Assembly: GCA_963704355.1 (NCBI GenBank)
Contig: OY969891.1
Span: forward strand, 495,475 to 559,474
Direction: 5' to 3'
Source: an uncultured Acidimicrobiaceae bacterium
Lineage (GTDB): Bacteria; Actinomycetota; Acidimicrobiia; Acidimicrobiales; RAAP-2
DNA: 64,000 nt
The notes under the pieces were generated by a model that was not told the origin of the DNA, ran no database searches, and saw only the letters and a program-made list of their open reading frames with translations. This document shows, piece after piece, positions 4,353 through 39,086 of the stretch. How positions within the stretch are numbered: position 1 is the first letter of the stretch; each line of letters begins with the position of its first letter. The position numbers and the translations under genes were made by a program.

Positions 4353-6362
4353 CTAGGGACGACGGTGGTGGAAACCCGGGCCGCTGTTGCCGCCGACGCC
4401 GGCGGTGGTCGACGTGGTCGTCGAGCTCGAGCTCGGCGACGTGGTCGTGGTCGTCGTGGTGGCGGACTGGCACACCGAGATGTTGACCGTCGTGCCGTTG
4501 TTCACCTGCGCGCCGGCGGCCGGGTTCTGGCTGTCCACGTTGCCGGGTTGGGCGTTGCCGGGGCAGGTGGTGTCGAACATCGCGTTCGGGACGAGGCCGG
4601 CGGTCATGAGCGCGCTCTGCGCCGACGACTGGGTCTGACCCACCACGCCGGGCACCGACACGCAGCTCCCGCTCGAGATCACGATGTTCACCGCCGCGTT
4701 GGGCTGGACGCTCTGCCCGCCTGACGGGCTCTGCTGGGCCACCAGCCCGGTGGAGAACTGGCTGGAGCACGCGCTCGTCTGGCTTCCGACGTTCAGGCCG
4801 GCCCGCGTGAGGATGGCCCCTGCGTTGGTCGGCGACTGCCCGAGGACGCTCGGCACCGACACCGACGTCTGGGTGCCCACCACGGTCAGTTGCACCGGGA
4901 TGTTGGCCTTGATGTTCGAGCCACCGGAGGGGTTCTGACTGACCACGACGCCGCTCGGCTGACTGCTCTCGGTGTATTTCACGGTGTAGGTCAGATTGGC
5001 CGCGGTCAGCTTCTGGATGGCTGGCGCAAGTTGCTCGCCGGTCACCGTGGGCACCTGGACCGTCGGGATGTTGGGCCCTGAGCTCACCACGAGGTTGACC
5101 TCGGAGTTCTTCCCGACCGAGGTCCCCGCCTTGGGATTGATCGACAGCACGAGACCGCTTGCCGTGGTGCTCTGCTGGTGGGTCACCGTCCCCACGGCCA
5201 GGCCCTCGTTCATCAGGGTCTGCGTCGCCACGCTCTGCGTCTCTCCGACCACATTGGGCACGTCCACGTTGCCGCCCAACGAGCGGAAGAGGAAGAACGC
5301 GATCACGCCGAGCGCCACGAGCAGCACGATCAACACGAGTACGAGGCGGCGGGTGCGCTTCTTGCGTTCCTCGTCGTCGCGGTCGGCGGTCGACGGGCGG
5401 GTGCCGGCCGGCACGGCCATCGTGCGGCCGGTGGCGGGGCTCATCATTGTGGTGGCAGTAGCCGGTCCTGCCCCCGCCCCCACTGCTGCCATTACCGACG
5501 TCAGGCCGACGTCGCTGGCCTCGACCGGCCGCCCGTCGGCGAAGCGAAGCAGGTCGGCGCGCAACTCCTCGGCCGATCCGTACCGGTCCGCCGGGTTCTT
5601 GGCCATCGCTTTCATGATCACGGCCTCGAGCGCGACCGGCACCGCGGGGTTGACTTGACGGGGCAGGTCGGGTTCGTCGCGCACGTGCTTGGACGCCACG
5701 GCCACCGGTGAGTCACCGGTGAAGGGCGGACGTCCCACCGCCATCTCGTAGAGGACCACTCCGAGGGAGTAGATGTCGCTGCGGGCGTCGACCCCCTTGC
5801 CTTCGGCCTGTTCGGGCGAGAAGTAGGCCGCCGTGCCCATCACCGCGCCTGTCTGCGTGAGACTCTCCTCGGTATTGATGGCGCGGGCGATGCCGAAGTC
5901 CGTGACCTTGACCTCGCCCTCGGGGGTGATGAGCACGTTGCCGGGCTTCACGTCGCGGTGGACCACGCCGTGCCGATGGGCGAACGCGAGCGCGGCCGCG
6001 ACCCCGGCCCCGATCATGGCGACCTGGCGCGGGTCGAGTCGTTGCGGGTCGCGCAGCACCGCCGAGAGCGCGCGCCCGTCGATGTACTCCATCACGATGA
6101 AGTAGGCACCGTCGTCCTCGCCCCAGTCGAAGACAGGGACGATGTTGGGGTGTGACAGGTTGGCCGCCGCCTGCGCTTCCCGCCGGAAGCGCTCGACGAA
6201 GGTCTTGTCGACCGAGAGCTCGGGGAACAGGACCTTCAGCGCGACCGGTCGGTCCAATTGACGGTCAACGGCGCGGTAGACCTGCGCCATCCCGCCCCGG
6301 GCGACCAGATGGGTCAGCTCGTAACGGCCGGAGTAGATCCGAGGCGTGTCGACCGGTTGCAT
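4353..6362 (-). CDS. pknB: Ser/Thr protein kinase PknB with four PASTA domains
   Basis: Kinase motifs GGMAQVYRA, VALK, HRDVKPGNVL, DFGIARA and SPEQ. One TM helix (LVLVLIVLLVALGVIAFFLF), four PASTA-like repeats, then a Thr/Ser-rich tail. Confidence 0.95.
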   Translation of the reverse strand: MQPVDTPRIYSGRYELTHLVARGGMAQVYRAVDRQLDRPVALKVLFPELSVDKTFVERFRREAQAAANLSHPNIVPVFDWGEDDGAYFIVMEYIDGRALSAVLRDPQRLDPRQVAMIGAGVAAALAFAHRHGVVHRDVKPGNVLITPEGEVKVTDFGIARAINTEESLTQTGAVMGTAAYFSPEQAEGKGVDARSDIYSLGVVLYEMAVGRPPFTGDSPVAVASKHVRDEPDLPRQVNPAVPVALEAVIMKAMAKNPADRYGSAEELRADLLRFADGRPVEASDVGLTSVMAAVGAGAGPATATTMMSPATGRTMAVPAGTRPSTADRDDEERKKRTRRLVLVLIVLLVALGVIAFFLFRSLGGNVDVPNVVGETQSVATQTLMNEGLAVGTVTHQQSTTASGLVLSINPKAGTSVGKNSEVNLVVSSGPNIPTVQVPTVTGEQLAPAIQKLTAANLTYTVKYTESSQPSGVVVSQNPSGGSNIKANIPVQLTVVGTQTSVSVPSVLGQSPTNAGAILTRAGLNVGSQTSACSSQFSTGLVAQQSPSGGQSVQPNAAVNIVISSGSCVSVPGVVGQTQSSAQSALMTAGLVPNAMFDTTCPGNAQPGNVDSQNPAAGAQVNNGTTVNISVCQSATTTTTTTSPSSSSTTTSTTAGVGGNSGPGFHHRRP

Positions 6363-6493
6363 GGCGTCCTGAGCCTACGCTGGAGGCCCCGAGGGGCGGG
6401 GTCTGTCCGAGCAGGAAAGGGCAGCGTACCGGGCGGGTCCTCCGGGGTTCGTGCGCCCCTTGCCGGCGTGGCGGGCCGAAGGGAGGATCGGCA

Positions 6494-8056
6494 TCACAGG
6501 CCGCCTCCCGGTGTGGCGGTGGTCGTCGTGGTCGTGCTGCCGTTCGCCCCGTTGGCGCCCGGTGCGGTCGTGCTGGTCGTCGTCGTCGTGGTGGTGGTGG
6601 TCGTCGTCACCGAGGCGACGAGGCTGTTCACATAGTTCTTGGCGTCCTTGAGCGAGGACTTCTGGACACCCGCAGTGACCGGTCCGACGGCAGCGGGCGG
6701 AATCTGGCCGGTGGTCTTGCCGGTGTGGTCCACGATCTTCGGGTGGAACCACAACACGCCGCCGAGCTGGCCCTGCTTGACCACGATCTGGTCGCCCTGG
6801 GTCGTGACGATCCAGTTGTCGTAGGCGTACCAGCGAAGCACGAAGTACGCAGCGACGGGCACCGCGGCCACGAGAAGGACGAATCCGAGGACCCGGAACG
6901 TGATCCGATGTGGAATACCGAGCCGGCGCCGGCGGGCCCGCCGACTCTCCTTCTCGGGCTTTTCCGCGACCGGGACCCTTTCCGGGGGCACCCGTGTGGT
7001 CGCGCGCGCCACGGGGACCGCGGCGGCCGCGCCCAAGAAGAACTCGTCGCTCCGCGGCCCCTCCTCGGCCAACGTCGTCGTCTCGTCGCCGAAACCCAGC
7101 CGCGCCCCCGGGGCTAGGGTGTCCGACAACGAACGCGCGCCCATCTGCGCGCTCTGGGTGGCGGGAAGTGCCTGCGTCAGGTTGGTGCCGTCCGAGGGGT
7201 CCGAAGCAACAGCGTCCGCGGTCTCGGTACCCGTGGAGGCTCCGTTCGCTGCGCCGGCAGCCGCCGACGCGACGGCAGGGGCGGCGGCCGCGCCCATGGC
7301 CGAGACCTTGGATGCGGTGCCGGATCCGTCCTCCCCGATCTGCACGTCGACGATGACGACGGTGATGTTGTCCGCGCCGCCGTGCTCGTTCGCCACGTCG
7401 ACCAGTCGATGCGCCGCTTCCTCGGGGTCGGCGACCGCGCCGAGCACGTCGGCCATTTCGTCCATCTCGACCTCGTTGGACAGGCCGTCGGAGCACAGCA
7501 GGACACGATCCCCACTACGCAGGTGGAGCTCCCACATGTCGGCCTGCACCTCGGAGGAGACCCCGAGGGCTCGGGTGAGGATGTGCCGCTGCGGGTGGAC
7601 GGCCGCCTCGGCCTCGGTCATCTCGCCATGGCGCATCCGCTCCTCGGCCAGGCTGTGGTCGTCGGTGATCTGGACGAGCTCTCCCTCGGAGAAGACGTAG
7701 GCCCGGGAGTCCCCGACGTTGGCCAGGGCCAGCACGTCGCGACCGTCGTCGTCACCGACCAGCGCCACCGCAGTGAGCGTGGTCCCCATGCCCCGGAGGT
7801 CGGTGTTGGCCTGGCTCTCGTACCAGACCGCGGCGTTCGCCTCGGAGAACGCGTGTCGCAGTCCGCTGACGGTCGGCGTCTTCTCGAAGGCGTGTTCGAG
7901 CGTCTCGATGGCGACCCGGGCCGCCACCTCGCCGCCGACGTGGCCACCCATGCCATCCGCAACCGCGTAGAGGTTGGGGCGTTCCAGCGGGAGGTCCTGG
8001 TTGATCGGCCGCACCCGCCCGACGTCGGATGCCGAGCCCGAGCGCAGGACGGTCAC
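6494..8056 (-). CDS. pstP: PP2C-family Ser/Thr phosphatase PstP (membrane anchored)
   Basis: PP2C motifs ADGMGGH, LLCSDGL and GGADNITVV. TM helix (ITFRVLGFVLLVAAVPVAAYFVL), an extracytoplasmic domain and a poly-Thr tail. Its start overlaps the fhaB stop by 4 nt. Confidence 0.9.
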   Translation of the reverse strand: MTVLRSGSASDVGRVRPINQDLPLERPNLYAVADGMGGHVGGEVAARVAIETLEHAFEKTPTVSGLRHAFSEANAAVWYESQANTDLRGMGTTLTAVALVGDDDGRDVLALANVGDSRAYVFSEGELVQITDDHSLAEERMRHGEMTEAEAAVHPQRHILTRALGVSSEVQADMWELHLRSGDRVLLCSDGLSNEVEMDEMADVLGAVADPEEAAHRLVDVANEHGGADNITVVIVDVQIGEDGSGTASKVSAMGAAAAPAVASAAAGAANGASTGTETADAVASDPSDGTNLTQALPATQSAQMGARSLSDTLAPGARLGFGDETTTLAEEGPRSDEFFLGAAAAVPVARATTRVPPERVPVAEKPEKESRRARRRRLGIPHRITFRVLGFVLLVAAVPVAAYFVLRWYAYDNWIVTTQGDQIVVKQGQLGGVLWFHPKIVDHTGKTTGQIPPAAVGPVTAGVQKSSLKDAKNYVNSLVASVTTTTTTTTTTTSTTAPGANGANGSTTTTTTATPGGGL

Positions 8057-8586
8057 TTCGACACCTCGAACACGGTCGAGCCGATCTGCAGCAGATCACC
8101 CTTGCCGAGCCGCATCGCCTGAGTGATCTGCTCGGAGTTGACAAAGGTGCCGTTGGTCGAGCCGAGGTCCTCGATCCAGAGCTGGTCGTTGCGCCGGAAG
8201 AGGCGCGCGTGGAGCGTGGAGGTGTAGATGTCTTGCGGCATGGCGACGCCGCAGCCCGGCGAGCGACCGATGGTGAGCTCGTCGTCGAGGTCGTAGCTGC
8301 GCCCCGCGTGATCCGGCGGCTGCACGACGGTGAGATACAGCTGCTTGCGCCGGCTCGGCTTCGGCTGCTCGGCCGGACGCGACGCTGCCCGCTCCTCGCG
8401 CCGCTCCTGTCGCTTCTGCCAGCGCGCCTTGCGGATGGTGGCCGGGCTCATCTCGACCCACACGGCACGGATGACCCGCAGGAAGAAGAGGAAGATGAGA
8501 GCGATGACACCCCATTGCAGGACGCGGAGCACCGCGTTCAGATTCTGCGTGGCGACCAGGACGGCCACCGCACCCGGTGTGGTCAC
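8053..8586 (-). CDS. fhaB: FHA-domain membrane protein FhaB/FipA
   Basis: GTG at 8586 overlaps the fhaA stop (GTGA). N-terminal TM helix (WGVIALIFLFFLRVI). C-terminal FHA motifs (TIGRSPGCGV, LGSTNGTFVN). Confidence 0.8.
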   Translation of the reverse strand: MTTPGAVAVLVATQNLNAVLRVLQWGVIALIFLFFLRVIRAVWVEMSPATIRKARWQKRQERREERAASRPAEQPKPSRRKQLYLTVVQPPDHAGRSYDLDDELTIGRSPGCGVAMPQDIYTSTLHARLFRRNDQLWIEDLGSTNGTFVNSEQITQAMRLGKGDLLQIGSTVFEVSK

Positions 8587-9242
8587 GACATTTCGAAGAT
8601 GAGCCTCGTCGAACCCACGGTGACCTCGTCGCCGCTCGCGAGGAGCTGCTCGCGGACCGGGGCCCCGTTGACCCTGGTCCCGTTCGTGGATCCCAGGTCG
8701 GTGACGAAGACGCCGTCGCCCTTCCGGCGCAGTTCGGCATGGCGCCGGCTCACGTTCGAGTCGGGCAGGACGACATCGCACTCGGGCAGGCGGCCGATGA
8801 CCAGGGCGTGGTCCGAGCCGACGGCGACCCGGCGCCCGTCCGGAAGGACGAGCTCGGCCAAGAAGCCCCCGTCCTCGCTCTGGTGGACGTCGGCGGTCAC
8901 CGTAAAACGGCCCGGCTTGAGGTTGGACCCCTCGAAGATCTCGACCTCCACAGGCCCGACGAACGAGTAGCCCTCGATCCGAGCGTGCTCCCGGGCGGCG
9001 TCGGACAGCTCCCGGGAGAGGGCATCGATGAAGTTGGCAAAACGGCTGACGTCCGCCGGCGACAGGGTCACGGCGAATGCATTCGGCGCGATGAGCCCTC
9101 GTACCCCCACCCGTCGGTGCAGGTCCATCTCGCGCGTCAACCTCCGGCCGATCTCGACCGGTTGGAGGTTGCTTCGAAATGGCTTGGCCAACGTTCCCTC
9201 CACGAGCCGCTCGAGGCGCTCCTCAAACTGCTGGAGTCCCAT
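8583..9242 (-). CDS. fhaA: FhaA-like protein (DUF3662 N-domain plus C-terminal FHA domain)
   Basis: Starts MGLQQFEERLERLVEG, typical of DUF3662. C-terminal FHA (IGRLPECDVVL..SRRHAEL..DLGSTNGTRVNG). The ATG at 9242 is preferred over the upstream ORF start at 9317. Confidence 0.85.
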   Translation of the reverse strand: MGLQQFEERLERLVEGTLAKPFRSNLQPVEIGRRLTREMDLHRRVGVRGLIAPNAFAVTLSPADVSRFANFIDALSRELSDAAREHARIEGYSFVGPVEVEIFEGSNLKPGRFTVTADVHQSEDGGFLAELVLPDGRRVAVGSDHALVIGRLPECDVVLPDSNVSRRHAELRRKGDGVFVTDLGSTNGTRVNGAPVREQLLASGDEVTVGSTRLIFEMS

Positions 9243-9377
9243 GGTCCTTGAAACAATACCGGCCCCGTGCGCTGGAGAGGGACTCGGCAGGCGTCTGACC
9301 TGGTCACCTGCATTCAAAATCAGCCTCAGGGCTGATCTGGGTCGCCCTCGGCACCGACTACTGTTGTCGGGTCACTC

Positions 9378-9530: not shown

Positions 9531-11339
9531 TCAGTACGTGACGGTGAAATCCTCCTTGGCCTCGTGCCCGGCCGACAAGTGAATCTCCACGGATGACGAG
9601 GTGGACTGGGTCAACTCGGTCGAACCGTAGACGTCGACGAAGCCCCGCACCCACCAGGTCCCCGGCGCCAGCAACAGCGTGTAGGCGCCGCCCGACTCCG
9701 CGTAGGCGTCCTGCTCACCCTGGCACGTCGTGCCGCTCGGGAGTGTCGTGCAGGCCTGGACACCTGCCTCGGCACCGCCGGTCGGGGCCCCGATGACGTC
9801 GACCGTCCCGATCACGGCGCCCTGGGTCGGCGTTGCGTAGGCCACGGTCAGGTTCTTGGTCGCCGTCTTGGCCGAGACGATGGTCACCGAAGTTGACGTA
9901 TGGCTGACCACCGAGCCAAAGACATCCTGGTAGCCGGGATAGAGCAGCCATGAACCCGCAGTCAGGGTCGGCAGCGAATAGAGGTTGAACGTGGCTGTGG
10001 CCTGGGGGGGCCCGGCGTAGCCGGCCGGCGGTTTCTCGGCCGGATGCCTGGTGTTGACCTGGGTGCGGTCCGCGGGCCCGTATCCGTACCCACCCGGCCC
10101 CGAGTACTCGCTCACGCATTCGGGCGCGGCGATCGCCCCGCTCCAGGGTTCCGACTTCGGGCAGGCAAGCACGGTGTAGCTCGTGATGCTCACGCCGGCG
10201 GGGAGCCCGCTGACCGTGATGGTGCCCGTCGCCGTGCCGGGCACGCGGTACCGGTCCGTGAGGTCTTGCTCAGCGGAGTGACCCGAAGTCAGGGCCACGG
10301 TCACCGCCGGCCCATCGACCGCATTGTCGTAGGGAGCCGCCAGGTAGAAGCCCTTCACGAACCAGGTCCCCGCGGGGAGGATCAGGCCGTACTCACCATT
10401 CGGGACGCCGTAGACCACCTGGCACGGGGTTCCGCCTTTCGGGCACGCCGAGACGCCCAGATCGTCGGAGAACCCGGCCGGCGCATCCGTCACGGTCACG
10501 GTACCGCTCAGGAACGCCTGACCGGGCTGGAGGAACTTCGTGGTCAGGTTCAAAGTGGTGGTTTGCCCTCCCACCAGCGTGGCGGCGGTGCCGTCGTTCG
10601 GGTTCGGTGTGTTGCACGTGGACTCGGTGCAGAAGCTCGGGTACGCCGTCCAGGCACCCGGCGGCAGGCCGCTCACCGAGTAGGTGCCGACGGTCGCGCC
10701 GGGGGTCGACGGCGCCGCGTACCCGCTGACGCACGCGATCGGGATGGTGCCCCCGGTGTAGGGAGCGAAGGACGGGCAGAGGAGGACCTCGAACTGGGAG
10801 ATGGTTTCTGACGTCGGTACTCCCGTGACCGTGATGGTGCCGGTGATCGCGGCGGGCTTCCGGTAGGGAACGGAGAGATTCAAGGTGACCGTCTTACCCG
10901 TGGTGACCGTGACCACGTGGGTCCCGCCCAGGAAGGCGCCGCCGAAGGCGTTGTTCTCGTAAAAGCCGGCAGCCTTGTACTTGCCCGCATCGAGGGTGAG
11001 CGTGTAAGTCCCGTCCTCGCTCAAGGCGTACTGCGGATTGGCGCACAACTGGCCCGCTGCTCCGGTGTCGGGGCACACTCCCGCTCCGAGGTAGGCGGGC
11101 TGGAAGCCGCTCGGGGCGTTGGTGACCGTCACGCTCCCCGTGACGGTGCCGGGCCCGCACGGCGAGGACGAGGCGCCGACGGTGCTCGCCGAGCTCCCGC
11201 AGGTCGCCGGGGACGCGGGCTGATCGCGCAAGACGTGGACCGCGTCGCCGGAGGCAGCTTGGGGGAGAACAATGATGGACAACACCAAGCTCGCCAGCGC
11301 GATGAACCCGATGTGTACCTTCTTGGGCCAAGGCTTCAC
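9531..11339 (-). CDS. secreted protein with five tandem beta-sandwich-like (CarboxypepD_reg/Ig-like) repeats, each with a Cys pair
   Basis: Signal peptide MKPWPKKVHIGFIALASLVLSIIVLPQAASG. Five ~110-aa repeats start G[ST][VI]TV[TS][NGD].P (VTVTNAPSGF, TITVTGVPTSE, TVTVTDAPAGF, TITVSGLPAGV, TVDVIGAPTGG). Confidence 0.6.
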   Translation of the reverse strand: MKPWPKKVHIGFIALASLVLSIIVLPQAASGDAVHVLRDQPASPATCGSSASTVGASSSPCGPGTVTGSVTVTNAPSGFQPAYLGAGVCPDTGAAGQLCANPQYALSEDGTYTLTLDAGKYKAAGFYENNAFGGAFLGGTHVVTVTTGKTVTLNLSVPYRKPAAITGTITVTGVPTSETISQFEVLLCPSFAPYTGGTIPIACVSGYAAPSTPGATVGTYSVSGLPPGAWTAYPSFCTESTCNTPNPNDGTAATLVGGQTTTLNLTTKFLQPGQAFLSGTVTVTDAPAGFSDDLGVSACPKGGTPCQVVYGVPNGEYGLILPAGTWFVKGFYLAAPYDNAVDGPAVTVALTSGHSAEQDLTDRYRVPGTATGTITVSGLPAGVSITSYTVLACPKSEPWSGAIAAPECVSEYSGPGGYGYGPADRTQVNTRHPAEKPPAGYAGPPQATATFNLYSLPTLTAGSWLLYPGYQDVFGSVVSHTSTSVTIVSAKTATKNLTVAYATPTQGAVIGTVDVIGAPTGGAEAGVQACTTLPSGTTCQGEQDAYAESGGAYTLLLAPGTWWVRGFVDVYGSTELTQSTSSSVEIHLSAGHEAKEDFTVTY

Positions 11340-11423
11340 CGCTCTACCTCCTGTCGCCGAAGGGACTGCCAGCCCTTTTGGCAGACCATATCTCCGCCGC
11401 GGGAGCGAGGCTCGGAAGTTCGA

Positions 11424-26870: not shown

Positions 26871-27716
26871 TCAGAGCGTGTGGCCGCCCGAGGAGGGCGC
26901 GTCGTCGTGGCCGCCGCCGTGACCGCCCCCACCGTTGCCGTACCCGTTGTCGCCTTGGCCGCCGTTCCCGTCGTTGCCACCGTTGCCACCGTCGCCACCG
27001 GCGCCACCGGCGCCGCCGCCCCCGTAGCCGTTGTCGTGGCCGCCGTTCCCGTTCCCGTTGTCATGGCCGCCGTTGCCGTTCCCGTTGCCGTTCCCGTTGC
27101 CGTTCCCGTTGCCACCGGAGCGGCCGCCGCCTCCGGTCCCCCCGCCCGAAGAGATGGGGCCCGGCTGGGTCGTGGTCGTGGCGATCGGCCCGGGCGGTGG
27201 TGTGATGCTTGGAGGCGGCGCCGTGGTGGGCGTGCTGACGCTGAGGTTGGTCAGCGTGGCCGGGGCGATCACGCCCGCCCCTGCCGCAGGCACGCTGGGA
27301 CGGGCCGTCGCGGTCAAGACGCCGGTCGAGGCCGTCGTCACGGCGGGAGGCTCACTCGCCGGTGCCCCCGCGCTGGCCGAACCGATTCCCGAGACCGACG
27401 GTGCGGCCGGAATGGGGAAGTACGGGACGCTCGAGGGCGCCGCGGCAGGTTGTGCCGTGCTCAACGGCAGCCCCGAGGGCCCGGCGCCGACCGCGACGAG
27501 GGCCGCCACGATCGATACTGCCGCCGCGGCGGCGCTCAGGGAGGCGATGGCGCGGTCCCGGAGCGAATGCGCCCGGGAGAGGCCCGCTGTGGCGGCAGCG
27601 GCAGCAGCAGCAGCAGCCGCCGGCGGTGCCACCTCGTCGGGCAGGTGCCCGAAGCCTGGCGACGCAAAGACGTCTTCCAGGGTCGCGTAGTCATGAGCCT
27701 CGGCCCAGTCGGACAC
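26871..27716 (-). CDS. single-pass membrane protein with Gly/Asn/His/Asp-rich extracytoplasmic tail (paralog of 27952..28785)
   Basis: N-terminal TLEDVFASPGFGH motif, TM helix (AIASLSAAAAAVSIVAALVAVGA), a Pro/Ala/Thr-rich spacer, then (GN)n and GHD repeats. Confidence 0.6.
   Translation of the reverse strand: MSDWAEAHDYATLEDVFASPGFGHLPDEVAPPAAAAAAAAAATAGLSRAHSLRDRAIASLSAAAAAVSIVAALVAVGAGPSGLPLSTAQPAAAPSSVPYFPIPAAPSVSGIGSASAGAPASEPPAVTTASTGVLTATARPSVPAAGAGVIAPATLTNLSVSTPTTAPPPSITPPPGPIATTTTQPGPISSGGGTGGGGRSGGNGNGNGNGNGNGNGGHDNGNGNGGHDNGYGGGGAGGAGGDGGNGGNDGNGGQGDNGYGNGGGGHGGGHDDAPSSGGHTL
27069..27113. repeat. tandem 12-nt repeat (gttgccgttccc, about 3.5 copies) encoding (Asn-Gly)7
   Basis: Read directly: gcc gtt gcc gtt ccc gtt gcc gtt ccc gtt gcc gtt ccc gtt. 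It lies inside the 26871..27716 CDS, and similar degenerate units flank it. Confidence 0.85.
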
Positions 27717-27951: not shown

Positions 27952-28785
27952 TCAGACCGCCGCGGACACCCCATGCCCGAAGTTGGCCACCGTCGCACCC
28001 AAGCCAGCGAGGACGCCGGTCACCGGGGACACCACGGGGAGCGCGGTCCCGAGCTGTTCCGACGCCGTCGTGACCGTCGTGCCGACCGTGACGGCGGTGT
28101 TGCCGACCAGGACCAATACCGGAGAGAGAACGCTGCCACCGCCGCCCGTCGGGCCGGGCGCTGTCGACGAACCCGGCGCTAGAGCTCCCGCGCCGCCTCC
28201 TGCGCCCGACGGCGCTTGGGGGGAAGCGGGGACCACGGCGACGCTGGTGCCAGGGGGTACCTCGAGCACCACCTCGGACCCCGACGGCACGGTTCCGCTT
28301 CCTTCCGTCGCTGCGACCGCCGTGGCCGGCACCGTGGCCGCGGGGACGCCGGGGGTGGCACCGGAAAGAGCGCCCGGTCTGCCCCCGTTCTGATCCGACG
28401 GGTGGGAGCCCGGGCCCGGTCCCCGTGCGGAGACCGTCGGACGCGCCGACTGACCCGTGCCCGAGGTAATCCCTGCGATCGCGAGTGCTGCCGCGGCGAC
28501 GCCACTGACTGCGGCGATGGCCCGGTACCGGACCGTCTCACGCTCCGACAGGGCGACGCCGACCGGGACCTCGCGCAGCGGGACGATCCGCGGGGGCCGC
28601 GCCGCCGGCTGAGGTCGGCCGAACGCACTCGACAAGAAGACCTCTTCGAGCTGAAGCGGGTCCAATGCCTCCCCAGGCTCGCCAACGACGTAGATCCCTG
28701 GCGAGGCAGCGCGTCCGAACTCTCGCGACAAGAAGACTTCCTCGAGACTGGTGACCGCAGCACCCGCCTCCTGCTGGTCGGACAT
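27952..28785 (-). CDS. single-pass membrane protein (paralog of 26871..27716), two copies of the LEEVFLS-x-x-FGR motif
   Basis: SLEEVFLSREFGR and QLEEVFLSSAFGR in the N-terminal cytoplasmic part. TM helix (AIAAVSGVAAAALAIAGITSG), then a Gly/Pro/Ala/Val/Thr-rich ectodomain. 60 nt downstream of the chaplin-like gene. Confidence 0.6.
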   Translation of the reverse strand: MSDQQEAGAAVTSLEEVFLSREFGRAASPGIYVVGEPGEALDPLQLEEVFLSSAFGRPQPAARPPRIVPLREVPVGVALSERETVRYRAIAAVSGVAAAALAIAGITSGTGQSARPTVSARGPGPGSHPSDQNGGRPGALSGATPGVPAATVPATAVAATEGSGTVPSGSEVVLEVPPGTSVAVVPASPQAPSGAGGGAGALAPGSSTAPGPTGGGGSVLSPVLVLVGNTAVTVGTTVTTASEQLGTALPVVSPVTGVLAGLGATVANFGHGVSAAV

Positions 28786-28845: not shown

Positions 28846-30411
28846 CTACTCTTCGAAGGGCGGCAGCGGCTCCAGCTGGTCAGCCTCCCGCCGACGGCTG
28901 AGCCGGCTGATGAGCAGACCCAGCAGCAGCGCCGCGGCCCCGATGAACAGCTCGACCACGAGCGGGGCACCGGTGAAGGCCAGCGGGCCCGACGCCGGAG
29001 CGGCGGCGGCGGCCGTCTTGACGGGGGTCGGCGTCGCCGCGGCCAGCTTCACCGGAACGGTCGTCGGTGCCGTCGAAGGTGGCGACGAGGCCGAGGTGGT
29101 CACCGCCGGCTGGGGGCACGGGGCGGCGGCCGTCCCACCCAGCGCCGCCTGAATACCGCAGATCGTGATGGGCACCGACACGCCGGTGCCAGTCGTACCG
29201 CCACCGCCGCCGATCGAGGTGGCGGAGCCCACGCAGGTGCCCGACGCGTTGCCCGATATCGCCACGGCCACCGCACACACGGTGACCGGGACGCTCGCCG
29301 TCACGCTGCCGACCGTCGTCGTGGTCGCCAGGTGGGTCGGTTCGCAGGTGTTCGACGCGCTGCCGGCGACCGCCACCACGATGCTGCACGCGTTCACCGG
29401 GATGACGCCCTCGATGGGCGCGCTCTGACTGACGTCGTTCGTCGGCAGGTCCTTCACGAGCGGGAAGCCGGCCGCCGGCATGCACGACCCCACCGCCGTG
29501 CCGTAGACCTCGGCCACCACACCACACACGGTGGCCGGGACGTAGAGGTCGGCCAGTTGGCCCTTCTGCGTGATGGTGTCCGGGAACTGTGGGCAGCCGG
29601 CGACGCTGTTGCCGTCGATCTCCGCGATCACGTCGCAGACGGTCACCGGCACGTCGGCGTCAACGACGCCGGTCTGCGACGTCGTCCCGTTCGTCCCGGT
29701 CAGGTTGCAACCACTCGCCGTGTTCCCGGCGAGCCCGACGTTGACGGAGCAGATGCTGACCGGGGCGGCCACGTTGATCGCGGCGTTCTGAGTCGTCGAG
29801 GCCGACGACTGGCCGGTGAGCGGCCCGAGCGACGACGCCGCCTGCCCGAGCAGTCCGATCGCGTTGAAGTCGGCCGTGATCGGGACGTTGATGTTCCCGA
29901 GCATGCCCAGCTGGTTCAGGCCGACCGAGGTCGTCGAGCACGTGCTCGACGCTCCCGCCAACAGTCCCAGGGACAGCGAGCAGGCGTTGACCGGCGCGTT
30001 GACGTTGATCAGCGGCGAGATCTGGTGCGTCGTGTTCGTCCCACTCAGCGCGTTCTGCCCGGGCAGGAGCGTGCTGCCGATCTCGTTCGCCACGAGCGAG
30101 ATCGGGAGGGACAACGACAGCGGCAACGCGGTCAGCGGCGCCAACGGATTGCTGGGCGCCTTGGCCGGCGTCGAGGTCGTGTGGGTGGCCGGAGCCGACG
30201 GCTGTGCCGGGGCGGTCGGTTGCGCCGGGGCCGTCGCGGTCGTGGCGGCTTTGAGTTCCGAAGTTGCGGTTTGGGCCTTCTGTTCCGCGCCCGCGACGGT
30301 TGACGCCGTGGACGCTGCGCCCACCGGCGCGACGCCCGCGACGACACTTGCGGCGGCCAACATGAGACCGCATGTGATCACAGCAGCTGACGTAAGAGAA
30401 TTCCGCCTCAA
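28846..30411 (-). CDS. cell-wall-anchored (LAFTG) protein with seven chaplin-like C-x13-C repeats
   Basis: Signal peptide and an Ala/Pro/Thr linker. Repeats such as INVNAPVNACSLSLGLLAGASSTC and INVAAPVSICSVNVGLAGNTASGC. C-terminal LAFTG plus a hydrophobic helix plus RRRE. Confidence 0.7.
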   Translation of the reverse strand: MRRNSLTSAAVITCGLMLAAASVVAGVAPVGAASTASTVAGAEQKAQTATSELKAATTATAPAQPTAPAQPSAPATHTTSTPAKAPSNPLAPLTALPLSLSLPISLVANEIGSTLLPGQNALSGTNTTHQISPLINVNAPVNACSLSLGLLAGASSTCSTTSVGLNQLGMLGNINVPITADFNAIGLLGQAASSLGPLTGQSSASTTQNAAINVAAPVSICSVNVGLAGNTASGCNLTGTNGTTSQTGVVDADVPVTVCDVIAEIDGNSVAGCPQFPDTITQKGQLADLYVPATVCGVVAEVYGTAVGSCMPAAGFPLVKDLPTNDVSQSAPIEGVIPVNACSIVVAVAGSASNTCEPTHLATTTTVGSVTASVPVTVCAVAVAISGNASGTCVGSATSIGGGGGTTGTGVSVPITICGIQAALGGTAAAPCPQPAVTTSASSPPSTAPTTVPVKLAAATPTPVKTAAAAAPASGPLAFTGAPLVVELFIGAAALLLGLLISRLSRRREADQLEPLPPFEE

Positions 30412-30652
30412 GGTGTTGCTCCTTCTGTGTAGGGGCTACACAGACCCGCTCTGAGCCCACGACGTCGCGGGTTATACCCACTGGGGAAACGACGAAAACG
30501 CCGCGCCCTCTCGCTCTCGGCCCGAAAATCTCGAACTTTTTCTGCTTACACGTGCGGTGCAACTGAAGAAGTGCGGATGCGATCGTTCTCGCCGCAGAAG
30601 GTTCTCGGCACACATTCGCGACGGTGCAACTGCCGCACACCGCAGCGGATCG

Positions 30653-31789
30653 TCAGCCGGCCGATCTCCGGAAGTACCGGCTCAGCGTCTCGATCTGTTG
30701 TTGGTACGAAGACCCGATACCCGCCCCGTACAGGGCCGTTGGCTCCTCCAACATCCGTTCGAACGTCAGCTTGCAGACGGCCTGGCCGTTCTCGACCATG
30801 AAGGGCACGTCGTGGGCGCGCACCTCGAGCGCGGCGCGCGACCCGCGGAAATCTCCCGAGGGATCGAAACCGAACCCCGGGTCGAAGAAGCCGGCATAGT
30901 GCGTCCGGAGCTCGCCACTGGTCGGGTCGTACGCTGTCATCTCGGCGGCCAAATTGGGGGGGATGCTCACCGCCTCGTCGGACATCAAGAGGTAGAAACG
31001 CTTCGGCGACAGAACAACCCGGTCACCCTCCTCGCGGTGTACGGCGTCCCAGAACGGGCCCGGGTCCACCTCCCCTCCCGTGGTGAGGTCGAGCACCGGT
31101 GCGATGTCGCGCGCGCTGTAGCCCACTTGGCCGCGCTCGTCGCCGTGGAGGTCCAGACCGAGGAAGAGGCCGTTCGACAGGACGAGGTCGTCGACCGGGA
31201 CGGGCCGGCCGTCCCGGAAGAGAATCGGATCGAGGAGGTGCGTCTGGCGGACCTCGTCGTCACTCAACCACGGGCGACCCATCGACAAGCGCAGTTGGTT
31301 CAGGGTCAGGTCCTCCTTCACCCGGATGGCGAAGGACAGAGGCACGACTTCGAGGTAGAGCGGCCCGTTGTAGCCCGGCGCCACCTCGTCGAACCGGTCG
31401 CTGCAGTCGGTGATGACGCGGGTGAAGACGTCGATCCGACCCGTCGAGCTCTTGGGGTTGGCCCTGCCCCGAAGGCCGGCGGGCAGGTCGAGGCGCTCCT
31501 TGAGCTCAATGAGGTACGGCCGCCCCGACTCGAGCATGGCGCCGCTCCCCCGGAGGTCGATCTCGTCGAGGACGTAGTCCTTGAGCTTGTTCCCGACCGA
31601 GTCGGACCCCGGCAGGAAGCTGCACCGGATGCGCAGGGCACGTTCGCCGAGGCGCAGGTCCAGGCTCGCCGGCTGAATGTTGGCCTCGGGGATCTTGAAT
31701 CGCCCGGCGTCGACGTACCCCGCACGGATGGCCCGCTCGAGCAGCTGCCCTGGCAGGACGCCCTCAGCCGACGAGTGGAGGCTCAGCAC
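30653..31789 (-). CDS. 2'-deoxycytidine 5'-triphosphate deaminase, long (~370 aa) DCD form
   Basis: GTG at 31789 is the chosen start. Text such as NIQPASLDLRLG, GRANPKSSTGRIDVF, LTLNQLRL, YAGFFDPGFG and ALEVRAHDVPF matches the two-domain DCD family. Confidence 0.75.
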   Translation of the reverse strand: MLSLHSSAEGVLPGQLLERAIRAGYVDAGRFKIPEANIQPASLDLRLGERALRIRCSFLPGSDSVGNKLKDYVLDEIDLRGSGAMLESGRPYLIELKERLDLPAGLRGRANPKSSTGRIDVFTRVITDCSDRFDEVAPGYNGPLYLEVVPLSFAIRVKEDLTLNQLRLSMGRPWLSDDEVRQTHLLDPILFRDGRPVPVDDLVLSNGLFLGLDLHGDERGQVGYSARDIAPVLDLTTGGEVDPGPFWDAVHREEGDRVVLSPKRFYLLMSDEAVSIPPNLAAEMTAYDPTSGELRTHYAGFFDPGFGFDPSGDFRGSRAALEVRAHDVPFMVENGQAVCKLTFERMLEEPTALYGAGIGSSYQQQIETLSRYFRRSAG

Positions 31790-32090
31790 CCTCGGAGCCG
31801 GGCGACGCGGGGTCTCGTTGGCTGCACGTGCAGAGCAAAGCACGTGGCGCGGCCGCACGAAAGGCCCGGCGTGGGGACGGCGTCGGGCACAGGCTGTGGA
31901 TGACTTGGGGACGACCTGGGGCGACACAGGGGTGTGGCAGGAGCCAACGGGTTGTCCACAGCCCTCGGCGGCGCTGACCGCCAGAAGACGGGGCCCCGGC
32001 CCCCGTCCGGGCCTCCCTGTAAGCTGACGGGTCGTCAGATTTCGGTGTCGCGCCGCCTGAGCTCGGCGTGGCGACCCTCCCGGAGGTCCC

Positions 32091-33830
32091 ATGCTCGACT
32101 ACGTCATCCGATCCGGCACGCTCATCGACGGCTCCGGCGAACCAGGTCGGCCGGCGGACGTCGGCGTGCGGGACGGGCGGATCGTCGCCGTCGGGCCGGT
32201 CGAGGAGGAGGCGGCGGTGGAGCTCGACGCCACCGGGCTCATGGTCGCCCCGGGCGTCGTCGATCCGCACACGCACTACGACGCACAACTCTTTTGGGAC
32301 CCGTCTGCCTCTCCGTCCAACGTGCACGGGGTGACCACGGTGATCGGCGGGAATTGCGGCTTCACCCTCGCCCCCATCAACGCGGAGGACGCCGACTACA
32401 TCCGGCGCATGATGGCGAAGGTCGAAGGGATGCCGCTCGCAGCGCTGGAGAACGGCGTGCCGTGGAACTGGTCCACCTTCGCCGAGTACCTCGACGCGCT
32501 CGAGGGCAACCTGGGCGTGAACGCCGGCTTCCTGGTCGGCCACTGCGCGCTCCGGCGCAAGGTGATGGGCGCGGCGCACGGCGAGGAGGTGGCGACCGAC
32601 GAGGAGATCACGGCCATGCGCGCGCTGCTCGCCGAATCCCTGGCCGCCGGCGGCCTCGGTTTCTCGTCCTCTCAGTCGCGCACACACTCCGACGGTGAGG
32701 GACGGCCCATCAGCTCGCGCCATGCCGACCGCCGCGAGATGCTCGCGTTCTGCGAGGAGGTGGCCGCCCACGAGGGCACGACCCTCGAGTACATCACCAA
32801 CGGCTGCCTGGACTCCTTCAGTCCCGAGGAGGTCGACCTCATGACCGCCATGAGCGTGACGGCGCGCCGGCCGCTCAACTGGAACGTCCTCACGGTCGAC
32901 GCCCGCTCGGCCGAACGGATCGAGCATCAGCTCTCGGCCTCGTCGGCCGCCGCCGCGGCCGGTGGGCGGATCGTCGCCCTGACCATGCCCACGCTCGTCC
33001 CGATGAACATGAGCTTCCGCACACATTGCGCCCTGTTCCTTATTCCCGGATGGGGCGAGGTCATGGGGCTTCCCGAACCAGAGCGCATGGCCAAGCTGGC
33101 CGACCCTGCGGTGCGTGCGATGCTCGACGAGCGGGCCCGCAGCAAGGAGGCCGGGGTCTTCCGCGGTCTCTCCCACTGGGGCACGTACGTCATCGGTGAC
33201 ACCTACGCCCCGGCCAACGAGGGGTGCGCCTTCCGCAGCGTGGCGGACATCGCCGCCGAGCGTGGCACGGCACCCTTCGACACCCTGCTCGACGTCGTCC
33301 TGGCCGACGGGTTGCGCACCGTGCTGTGGCCCAACACCGACGACGGTGACGACAACTCGTGGGTCATGCGGGCCGCGATATGGAGCGACCCTCGCGCCAT
33401 GGTCGGTGGGTCCGACGCCGGCGCCCACCTCGACCGCATGTGCGGCTCGAACTATCCGACCGCCTTCCTCGGGGACTGCCTGCGCGGGCGCCAGCTCGTT
33501 CCCGTGGAGCAGGCGGTGCACATGATGACGGCGCAGCCGGCCCAGCTGTTCGGCCTGCGCGACCGCGGGTTGGTGCGCGAAGGCTACGCAGCGGACCTCT
33601 TCGTCTTCGACCCGGCCACGGTCGGCTCCGAGCCGGCGCGCCTCGTCCACGACCTGCCGGGCGACACGCCCCGGCTCTACGCCGGCTCCCACGGCGTCGT
33701 GCGCGTCCTGGTGAACGGCGTCGAGACCGTGCGCGACGGCGCGCCCACCGGGGGCCTGCCCGGCACCCTCCTCCGCTCGGGCCGCGACACGGCCTCGGTG
33801 GTCCCTGTCCCCGCGCCTGAGCGCTCCTGA
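32091..33830 (+). CDS. N-acyl-D-amino-acid deacylase (D-aminoacylase) family amidohydrolase
   Basis: MLDYVIRSGTLIDGSG..DVGVRDGRIVAVG..APGVVDPHTHYD..GVTTVIGGNCG is the classic D-aminoacylase N-terminus. 579 aa. Confidence 0.85.
   Translation: MLDYVIRSGTLIDGSGEPGRPADVGVRDGRIVAVGPVEEEAAVELDATGLMVAPGVVDPHTHYDAQLFWDPSASPSNVHGVTTVIGGNCGFTLAPINAEDADYIRRMMAKVEGMPLAALENGVPWNWSTFAEYLDALEGNLGVNAGFLVGHCALRRKVMGAAHGEEVATDEEITAMRALLAESLAAGGLGFSSSQSRTHSDGEGRPISSRHADRREMLAFCEEVAAHEGTTLEYITNGCLDSFSPEEVDLMTAMSVTARRPLNWNVLTVDARSAERIEHQLSASSAAAAAGGRIVALTMPTLVPMNMSFRTHCALFLIPGWGEVMGLPEPERMAKLADPAVRAMLDERARSKEAGVFRGLSHWGTYVIGDTYAPANEGCAFRSVADIAAERGTAPFDTLLDVVLADGLRTVLWPNTDDGDDNSWVMRAAIWSDPRAMVGGSDAGAHLDRMCGSNYPTAFLGDCLRGRQLVPVEQAVHMMTAQPAQLFGLRDRGLVREGYAADLFVFDPATVGSEPARLVHDLPGDTPRLYAGSHGVVRVLVNGVETVRDGAPTGGLPGTLLRSGRDTASVVPVPAPERS

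Positions 33831-37122: not shown

Positions 37123-39086
<1,964 letters not shown>

Follow-up and report, generated by a model that had tools for sequence, protein, structure and literature searches.

The stretch of DNA analysed here (the window) comprises 64,000 nucleotides (nt) of contig OY969891.1 (assembly GCA_963704355.1, positions 495,475 to 559,474) from an uncultured Acidimicrobiaceae bacterium, and the gene in question, hereafter the target, occupies positions 28846 to 30411 of its minus strand. The listing of open reading frames (ORFs) in the window gives this gene a TTG start and 521 amino acids (aa) plus a stop codon; a GAAGGAG Shine-Dalgarno sequence lies 7 nt before the TTG, the G+C content at third codon positions (GC3) is 0.89, and translation of the same interval on the plus strand yields an arginine-rich nonsense frame. 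An earlier reading made from the letters alone (the sequence-only reading) had described the product, without naming the strand, as a surface protein with a signal peptide, an array of 7-8 repeats, seven strict C-x13-C cysteine pairs and an LAxTG sorting signal, and had likened its repeats to the chaplins of Streptomyces. An independent parse returned the same 521-aa ORF, the same layout and an identical list of pairs (144/158, 221/235, 259/273, 296/310, 342/356, 379/393 and 418/432, each with 13 intervening residues). These pairs account for 14 of the 15 cysteines in the protein, the other being C14, within the signal peptide. A lipoprotein reading of C14 was rejected, given that its context, VITC, is not a lipobox and that the residue is not conserved.

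The features of the gene are given below in the direction of translation. The probability (Prob) and P values for the units derive from hhalign comparison of each position-specific profile with C-x13-C units from proteins positive for the chaplin family PF03777.

30412 to 30652, minus strand: intergenic upstream region of 241 nt between the dCTP deaminase (DCD) gene and the target, where the promoter is presumed to lie
30316 to 30411, minus strand: Sec-type signal peptide, residues 1-32 (MRRNSLTSAAVITCGLMLAAASVVAGVAPVGA, followed by AS after the predicted cut), assigned by sequence inspection
30127 to 30315, minus strand: low-complexity N-terminal segment rich in Ala, Pro, Thr and Gln, residues 33-95, poorly conserved and variable in length (alignment A1)
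30031 to 30126, minus strand: conserved N-terminal segment, residues 96-127 (LPLSLSLPISLVANEIGSTLLPGQ...), with P103, N109 and P117 at least 90% conserved
29938 to 30012, minus strand: unit 1, residues 134-158, C144-x13-C158; Prob 95.5%, P 1.3e-8
29824 to 29898, minus strand: unit 2, without cysteines, residues 172-196 (GNINVPITADFNAIGLLGQAASSLG); Prob 83.4%, P 8.4e-6
29707 to 29781, minus strand: unit 3, residues 211-235, C221-x13-C235, both cysteines invariant; Prob 91.8%, P 7.5e-7
29593 to 29667, minus strand: unit 4, residues 249-273, C259-x13-C273; Prob 93.6%, P 2.1e-7
29482 to 29556, minus strand: unit 5, residues 286-310, C296-x13-C310; Prob 94.9%, P 4.3e-8; local hairpin in the AlphaFold2 (AF2) model with a predicted local distance difference test (pLDDT) score of 72-80
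29344 to 29418, minus strand: unit 6, residues 332-356, C342-x13-C356; Prob 91.8%, P 7.4e-7; local pLDDT up to 83
29233 to 29307, minus strand: unit 7, residues 369-393, C379-x13-C393; Prob 96.5%, P 9e-10; local pLDDT up to 87
29116 to 29190, minus strand: unit 8, residues 408-432, C418-x13-C432; Prob 96.8%, P 2.6e-10; local pLDDT up to 86
28984 to 29115, minus strand: stalk rich in Pro, Thr, Ala and Ser, residues 433-476, assigned by composition and variable in orthologues
28849 to 28983, minus strand: cell-wall sorting signal by parse, with LAFTG at 477-481, a hydrophobic stretch at 482-505, RRR at 506-508 and a short acidic tail

A promoter scan of positions 30412 to 30652 found no sigma-70 consensus, as would be expected for a high-GC actinobacterial host. 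A, T, S, V, G, L and P predominate in the mature protein, in which only about 5% of residues are charged. The core is acidic and nearly uncharged (4.7% charged residues), with a grand average of hydropathy (GRAVY) of 0.57, rising to 0.96-1.30 in the units, compared to 0.31 for a classic chaplin domain; the low-complexity segment at residues 33-95 has a GRAVY of -0.29 and a pLDDT below 50. In the signal peptide, the RR of the n-region, the h-region and the xGA-A cleavage site are kept in orthologues. The cysteine-less copy picked out by the sequence-only reading proved to be a genuine degenerate unit (Prob 83%, P 8e-6), and its motif is present in 49 of 64 orthologues. Residues 96-127 may represent a ninth, degenerate and likewise cysteine-less unit ('U0'), matching the C-x13-C intermediates described below weakly by hhalign (P 0.0033, Prob 9.8%), while the profile of the linker at residues 311-330 had no match to the chaplin-positive C-x13-C units. 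The sorting signal gave a weak match to the NCBIfam model LAXTG_small_WW (E 0.075), coincides with an AF2 helix at 482-511, and contains each element by which SrtE substrates are recognised, namely an LAxTG motif (LAFTG), a hydrophobic span (24 residues) and basic residues (RRR). Every C-x13-C segment was modelled by AF2 as a beta-hairpin, the local pLDDT reaching 87 at most. The full-length model, built with 30 sequences, had a mean pLDDT of 51.7 and only its local hairpins are credible; a model of the core, built with 14 sequences, reached a pLDDT of 34.3 and was unusable.

A search of a 5.8-billion-protein collection recovered 45 homologues at 36-70% identity, all of them without a Pfam domain and either unnamed or annotated as 'hypothetical protein'. 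When one genome per GTDB species was scanned, 66 close orthologues (50-77% identity) emerged, all in Acidimicrobiales or uncultured Acidimicrobiaceae metagenome-assembled genomes (MAGs), mostly from soil surveys. Thirteen residues is by far the commonest gap between cysteines among the 45 homologues, with 269 occurrences, and the paired cysteines are invariant or at least 90% conserved in the alignments, as is the tail composed of LAxTG, transmembrane (TM) helix and RR; the cysteine pattern is therefore not a product of chance, and the conservation of repeats and pairs in orthologues, on which the sequence-only reading had staked its proposal, was observed. Exactly seven pairs occur in 47 of 64 genome orthologues, most of the others being truncated or frameshifted contigs. 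The sorting pentapeptide has the form LAxTG with S, F, L or T in the variable position in 50 of 64 orthologues; every detectable pentapeptide was of that form, and LPxTG was found in none. Units at the same position are 60-90% identical across species, far better conserved than different units within one protein (only about 20-30% identical), indicating that the array is old and that each position has become specialised. The spacings between units are fixed (62/23/22/31/22/24-26), and individual positions bear their own signatures, such as VPVTVCDVIxEIxGNS in unit 4 and CEPxH after unit 6.

More distant relatives were found in Iamia, in another Acidimicrobiia MAG and in the cultured Blastococcus haudaquaticus. 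The relative in the Iamia sp. MAG (L067:9620-11320, plus strand) has 10 C-x13-C units of the form DAPVxVCGVxVAV...C and an LARTG signal, and that of B. haudaquaticus DSM 44270 (L069:9749-10669, plus strand) has three cysteine-containing units, cysteine-less VPVTVTGNAVGLLGDA units and an LAYTG signal; this cultured strain offers an experimentally tractable entry to the C-x13-C subtype. Separately, homologues listed as 'long' in alignment A1 (573-866 aa; P0015, P0021, P0025, P0031 and P0036) contain arginine-rich out-of-frame sequence or read through a stop into the downstream gene. The 815-866 aa 'fusion proteins' P0015, P0021, P0025 and P0031 were rejected as real architectures and attributed to assembly frameshifts; frameshift errors in long-read MAG assemblies thus inflate the apparent architectural diversity of these homologues.

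In Streptomyces, chaplins are the standard example of functional amyloids. To obtain a genuine chaplin set, a ChpH-like sequence was used in a tblastn search of PLSDB, returning annotated Streptomyces plasmid 'chaplin' genes at eight loci. All nine of the cysteine-containing domains in this set are C-x17-C (VPVNVCGNTxNVIGLLNPAFGNxC), and one long plasmid chaplin has a cysteine-less second domain and an LAHTG anchor. The description, in the sequence-only reading, of classic chaplins as C-x17-C proteins of one or two domains agrees with these nine domains and with the literature (PMC5618241). When the pooled target units were compared with the chaplin profile by hhalign, they aligned with the first cysteine in register (xPVxVCG...G; Prob 72-74%, P about 3e-5), with a score of 21.9 against a column-shuffled null of 8.5±2.2 (maximum 16.1; 0 of 300 in each direction). 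Each position-specific unit aligned to chaplins in the same register and exceeded its reversed-profile control. Taken alone, this direct profile match is suggestive of homology rather than conclusive.

The decisive evidence is transitive and comes from an exhaustive HMMER search, in which a profile of the family core (residues 96-436, alignment A5) was compared with 1.84 billion cluster representatives. Only 98 representatives matched at E≤1e-3, 34 of them at E≤1e-30, and the strongest were family members or fragments thereof. The remaining matches, with library-wide E values of 1e-12 to 1e-3, consist of 3-10 tandem C-x13-C units, most of them ending in LAxTG, a TM helix and RR. Many of the distant matches read G(V)LSGNQVNAPVSVPVNVCGNAVAVLGxAxAxC, and by sequence these intermediates join the N-terminal half of a classic chaplin (GVLSGN...VPVNVCGN) to the short loop of the target family. 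Among 36 distant relatives, 20 match PF03777 at E≤0.01, including P0126 (2.8e-63, 8 domains), P0117 (2.2e-41, 5 domains), P0124 (4.2e-24), P0094 (2.5e-19), P0114 (2.4e-16), P0089 (4.6e-14) and P0119 (1.7e-9), while P0116, from Blastococcus saxobsidens, scores 21.4 bits, just at the PF03777 gathering threshold of 21 bits. P0117 corresponds to RefSeq WP_329518656.1, a 'chaplin family protein' of Spirillospora, and UniProt lists the proteins of Blastococcus and Geodermatophilus as 'Small secreted domain DUF320'. The Iamia relative has a sub-threshold PF03777 match (E 0.0018) over five stretches.

Profile comparison connected both ends of this series. The target units aligned with the PF03777-positive intermediates over 29 columns with both cysteines in register (Prob 97.3%, E 2.6e-11, score 42.9), and the intermediates aligned with the Streptomyces chaplins (Prob 97.8%, E 1.1e-12). 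Because the target and intermediate unit sets had both been cut out with the same regular expression, a stricter shuffle null in which the cysteines were held fixed was applied; it gave 9.3±2.7 (maximum 18.9, 0 of 200, z about 12) against the real score of 42.9, and replacing the cysteines of the target units with alanine still left a score of 24.6 against the intermediates. Individually, the seven cysteine-containing units reached Prob 92-97% and the cysteine-less unit 83%. Two other searches were uninformative: a word-index protein search with a 42-aa unit alignment produced 228 word candidates and no match, this index being unable to seed degenerate short repeats, and a sequence search of the PDB using the core profile gave nothing above noise (TrmE, E 0.41). 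Given that the chain from target to intermediates to classic chaplins holds, and that the shuffle controls fall far below the real scores, we have high confidence that the target units are remote homologues of the chaplin domain. The sequences form a graded series, from the x17 spacing of Streptomyces through a Thermomonosporaceae-type x13 form, a Geodermatophilaceae type and Iamia to the target family at the far end.

Starting from the observed architecture and homology, we infer the disulfides, the sortase anchoring and a hydrophobic-coat or adhesive function. We consider it fairly probable that the target is a covalently wall-anchored, very hydrophobic surface protein composed of eight (possibly nine) tandem chaplin-related units of the C-x13-C subtype, about 25-37 residues each, and it would then probably serve as a sortase-anchored surface coat or adhesin. 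The protein would be exported by the Sec pathway and its signal peptide cut after VGA32. Each beta-hairpin would be stapled by an intramolecular disulfide within its C-x13-C pair; the hairpins are those predicted by AF2, and the disulfides are proposed by analogy with chaplins, whose cysteine pair is conserved and thought to form such a bond (PMC5618241). A class E-type sortase would cut LAFTG between T and G and link the protein to peptidoglycan, a prediction made because the signal of LAxTG, TM helix and RRR is strictly conserved; sortase attachment has been shown for the long chaplin ChpC and is expected for ChpA and ChpB (PMC5618241, PMC13251363). The Pro/Thr-rich stalk presumably spans the cell wall and would display the uncharged hydrophobic array at the cell surface. 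By analogy with long chaplins, which are SrtE-anchored via LAxTG and tether an amyloid hydrophobic layer (PMC5618241, PMC13251363), the array may make the surface hydrophobic and/or adhesive, maybe through amyloid-like beta-sheet self-association between units or molecules. Chaplins also mediate surface attachment, and this role has been proposed to be older than aerial growth (PMC4255298), a proposal that fits the target since its host is probably non-mycelial.

Several results weigh against this reading. The chaplin domain has been defined as highly hydrophobic, with two cysteines and three GN motifs 12-13 residues apart at turns (PMC13251363, citing Elliot et al. 2003). The target agrees with this definition in having two cysteines flanking a hydrophobic hairpin, in seven invariant or near-invariant pairs with a spacing of 13, and its units and core combine high hydrophobicity with low charge. 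The GN motifs, which in classic chaplins lie at -14, +1 and +15 from the first cysteine and in the intermediates at -14, +1 and +16, are all three missing, the only GN being at +8, in the hairpin turn, of three of the seven units. The direct check against PF03777 that the sequence-only reading had proposed gave no match, an hmmscan of Pfam-A at E≤10 being empty for the whole protein, four sub-segments and 30 orthologues, and NCBIfam gave no chaplin match for the query or orthologues. The direct profile match between target and chaplins spans only 18 columns. No sortase (PF04203, TLxTC motif) was found among the roughly 30 larger window ORFs that were scanned, some of which have no Pfam match and to which the scan was confined, nor within ±10 kb in two relatives for which precomputed Pfam assignments were used. 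Likewise, neither the 64-kb window nor the ±10 kb surveyed in the two relatives contains a short single-unit partner or a rodlin; the window also holds no second LAxTG protein. Neither AF2 run produced confident packing between units or at the tertiary level, and the much higher conservation of orthologous units than of units among themselves suggests a defined and position-specific fold rather than a generic amyloid-former. The likeness to chaplins noted in the sequence-only reading thus stands as remote homology through a chain of profiles, but not as a PF03777 match or as possession of GN motifs. With the GN motifs absent and the Pfam threshold not reached, the target is not a chaplin by current family definitions; sequence comparison places it as a diverged branch of the chaplin superfamily.

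The main rival to the favoured reading accepts the same origin, but holds that the eight stapled hairpins pack as one rigid, monomeric, beta-rich rod or solenoid that is not amyloid. Such a protein could act as an adhesin or envelope protein binding soil particles, polysaccharide or cells, with neither polymerisation nor tethering of short chaplins. The strongly conserved signature at each unit position, the fixed spacings and the constant unit number (seven pairs in 47 of 64 species) are typical of one cooperative fold, not of interchangeable amyloid units; the window DNA reveals no short secreted partner, and the gene sits in a housekeeping locus near oriC. Against this, AF2 twice failed to pack the units confidently, a GRAVY of 0.57 with fewer than 5% charged residues would be unusual for a soluble exposed domain, and the characterised relatives of the domain, the chaplins, form amyloid (PMC5618241). 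On balance, we regard the folded rod as possible but rather unlikely. A further reading, which we regard as unlikely, has the eight specialised, covalently concatenated and chaplin-derived hairpins forming a self-contained, pre-templated cross-beta (amyloid-like) stack. Were this the case, one polypeptide would do the job of the mixed short and long chaplins of Streptomyces, providing a covalent hydrophobic coat for unicellular, deep-branching soil Acidimicrobiales, and the chaplin fold would be older than the aerial mycelium, having served first for surface hydrophobicity or attachment.

It is also conceivable that the likeness to chaplins is convergent, a 'PVxVC...G...C' disulfide hairpin having arisen independently in an unrelated LAxTG protein with cysteine repeats. 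The lack of a direct Pfam or NCBIfam match, the absent GN motifs and a loop four residues shorter would all fit, and short low-complexity units can mislead profile methods, particularly where one regular expression extracted both unit sets. However, the whole-core HMMER search, which is independent of that expression, retrieved PF03777 proteins at library-wide E values of 1e-12 to 1e-4, and the cysteine-fixed shuffle (z about 12) and the score surviving the cysteine-to-alanine change both argue for homology. Intermediates grade from Streptomyces C-x17-C through Spirillospora-type 'GVLSGNQ..CGN' C-x13-C proteins, Geodermatophilaceae and Iamia to the target, and the LAxTG anchor and the restriction to Actinomycetota are common to both. 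Convergence is accordingly improbable. Least likely is a sortase-polymerised pilin, for which the LAxTG signal might speak, or a recently expanded low-complexity or artefactual ORF, of which high-GC DNA gives many, and these are effectively refuted by conservation: there is no pilin motif, adjacent class C sortase or pilus gene cluster, the ORF has a GC3 of 0.89, a ribosome-binding site (RBS), 50-77% identity across 66 species and invariant cysteines, and the repeats are ancient and position-specific.

The sequence-only reading had further held that an array of this kind would be an undescribed architecture. At the level of databases that claim does not hold, since proteins with 4-9 tandem C-x13-C chaplin domains and LAxTG, such as WP_329518656.1, are already in RefSeq and metagenomes, several of them annotated as chaplin family or DUF320, so that the poly-chaplin C-x13-C architecture is not new. 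None of these multi-domain proteins appears to have been studied experimentally; our literature search found no paper describing multi-domain or Acidimicrobiia chaplin-like proteins, and reviews still give chaplins one or two domains (PMC5618241). The novelty lies in a deeply diverged subfamily that cannot be annotated at present, having lost its GN motifs and carrying eight individually specialised units, and in the occurrence of a chaplin-superfamily protein as a core gene, kept in synteny, within an uncultured clade of Acidimicrobiales that belongs to a class of Actinomycetota of its own. With about 66 Acidimicrobiales species whose gene is missed by Pfam and NCBIfam, the range known for the domain grows, extending beyond the lineages where chaplins are thought to have arisen (PMC4255298), and this supports the idea that surface attachment or hydrophobicity preceded the role in aerial growth. 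In practical terms, the C-x13-C 'short-loop' subtype and its graded intermediates could serve to widen the PF03777 model, the family could be annotated as something other than 'hypothetical protein', and the protein, with its eight natural tandem units, lends itself to studies of the packing of disulfide-stapled chaplin hairpins. No concept is overturned, and the proposed function is a prediction from sequence.

The surroundings of the gene are those of a chromosomal origin, the window covering the oriC region with ParA/ParB, Jag, YidD, gyrBA and PknB/PP2C/FhaA. The syntenic order is gyrB, gyrA, signal peptidase I, amidohydrolase, dCTP deaminase, target, two hypothetical membrane proteins, aldo/keto reductase and an AMP-binding enzyme. 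Since the locus is conserved and close to oriC, the target is a vertically inherited core gene of the clade, not a mobile or recently expanded one. The gene next in order is the following.

27952 to 28785, minus strand: downstream gene of 277 aa, beginning 58 nt past the stop codon of the target and preceded by its own GGAAGGAGG RBS; no terminator separates the two

In the 277-aa product a cytoplasmic 'LEEVF..FGR' motif occurs twice. Its gene lies directly downstream in 29 of 64 orthologous loci, and frameshifts fuse it with the target in several of the MAG gene calls; it is possibly co-transcribed with the target and may cooperate functionally with the surface protein. The following gene (26871-27716, minus strand) is conserved as well. 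Both products start with a cytoplasmic motif of the 'LEEVF/LEDVF...FG' kind, after which come one TM helix and a low-complexity ectodomain rich in Pro, Gly and Ser; the second has a long Gly/Asn tract at its C-terminus (GNGNGNGNGNGNGNGGHDNGNGNGG...). No Pfam or NCBIfam family was found for either downstream gene.

Other observations concern the remainder of the window. The dCTP deaminase ORF (30653-32092, minus strand) is listed as 479 aa, with DCD domains that begin only around residue 107; translation probably starts well after the first in-frame ATG, leaving the N-terminal Arg/Pro-rich extension likely untranslated. gyrB (37123-39086, minus strand) is split between overlapping ORFs in different frames, 37851-39086 with HATPase_c and DNA_gyraseB, and 37123-37947, which presumably carries Toprim and GyrB_C. 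This split points to a frameshift, most likely an assembly indel, and in the relative L001 gyrB was likewise called only as a 211-aa C-terminal fragment. The usual actinobacterial operon runs fhaA-fhaB-pstP-rodA-pbpA-pknA-pknB. The arrangement at 4356-9371 (minus strand) differs in that the PP2C phosphatase (6497-8095) and FhaA (8586-9371) come immediately after the PASTA kinase PknB (4356-6374), no RodA or PbpA ORFs lying between them. Between FhaA and an Amidohydro_2 gene is a 630-aa ORF (9534-11423, minus strand) that has a coding-like GC3 of 0.87 and no Pfam family at E≤1e-5.

Among known systems, the long chaplins ChpA-C of Streptomyces coelicolor (PF03777/DUF320) are also secreted and restricted to Actinomycetota. 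They share with the target a hydrophobic beta-hairpin domain with an 'xPVxVC' strand and conserved cysteine pair, a Pro/Thr-rich linker between domains and anchor, and a C-terminal signal of the type that class E sortase recognises (LAxTG, TM helix and basic tail). In contrast with ChpA-C, the target has eight units rather than two and a cysteine spacing of x13 rather than x17; its individually specialised units lack GN motifs and go undetected by PF03777. Its host is a deep-branching uncultured member of the Acidimicrobiales that is probably not mycelial, and no short chaplins or rodlins are known in the genomes that carry it.

A second set comprises the C-x13-C 'chaplin family proteins', among them WP_329518656.1 (Spirillospora sp.) and WP_285939990.1 (Actinomadura xylanilytica) with five domains, P0126 with eight Pfam-matched domains and LAMTG, and the DUF320 proteins of Blastococcus and Geodermatophilus. 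They too carry an LAxTG anchor and tandem arrays with the same spacing (3-9 units, now and then one without cysteines), and their unit profiles match those of the target (Prob 97%, E 2.6e-11). Unlike the target, they keep the 'GVLSGNQ' and 'CGN' GN motifs, and several lie well over the Pfam threshold (up to 210 bits); P0116 is borderline with 21.4 bits, and P0090 falls short of it. Within these proteins one unit is almost the same as the next, whereas those of the target are about 20-30% identical to one another and conserved orthologously, and several of these proteins are basic or charged (P0117 has an isoelectric point of 10.5 and 15% charged residues), in contrast with the acidic, nearly uncharged core of the target.

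Finally, CwpA and CwpB of Actinoplanes missouriensis are hydrophobic wall proteins that depend on the class E sortase SrtE, of which they are substrates, and that render the cell surface hydrophobic (PMC13251363), a resemblance to the anchoring and function proposed for the target. They have no tandem C-x13-C array; like the target, they combine disordered regions with clusters of beta-strands and contain no canonical chaplin domains by the GN and cysteine criteria. Their role, which is to suppress exploration and promote sporangium formation, differs from that proposed for the target in being tied to a mycelial life cycle (PMC13251363).

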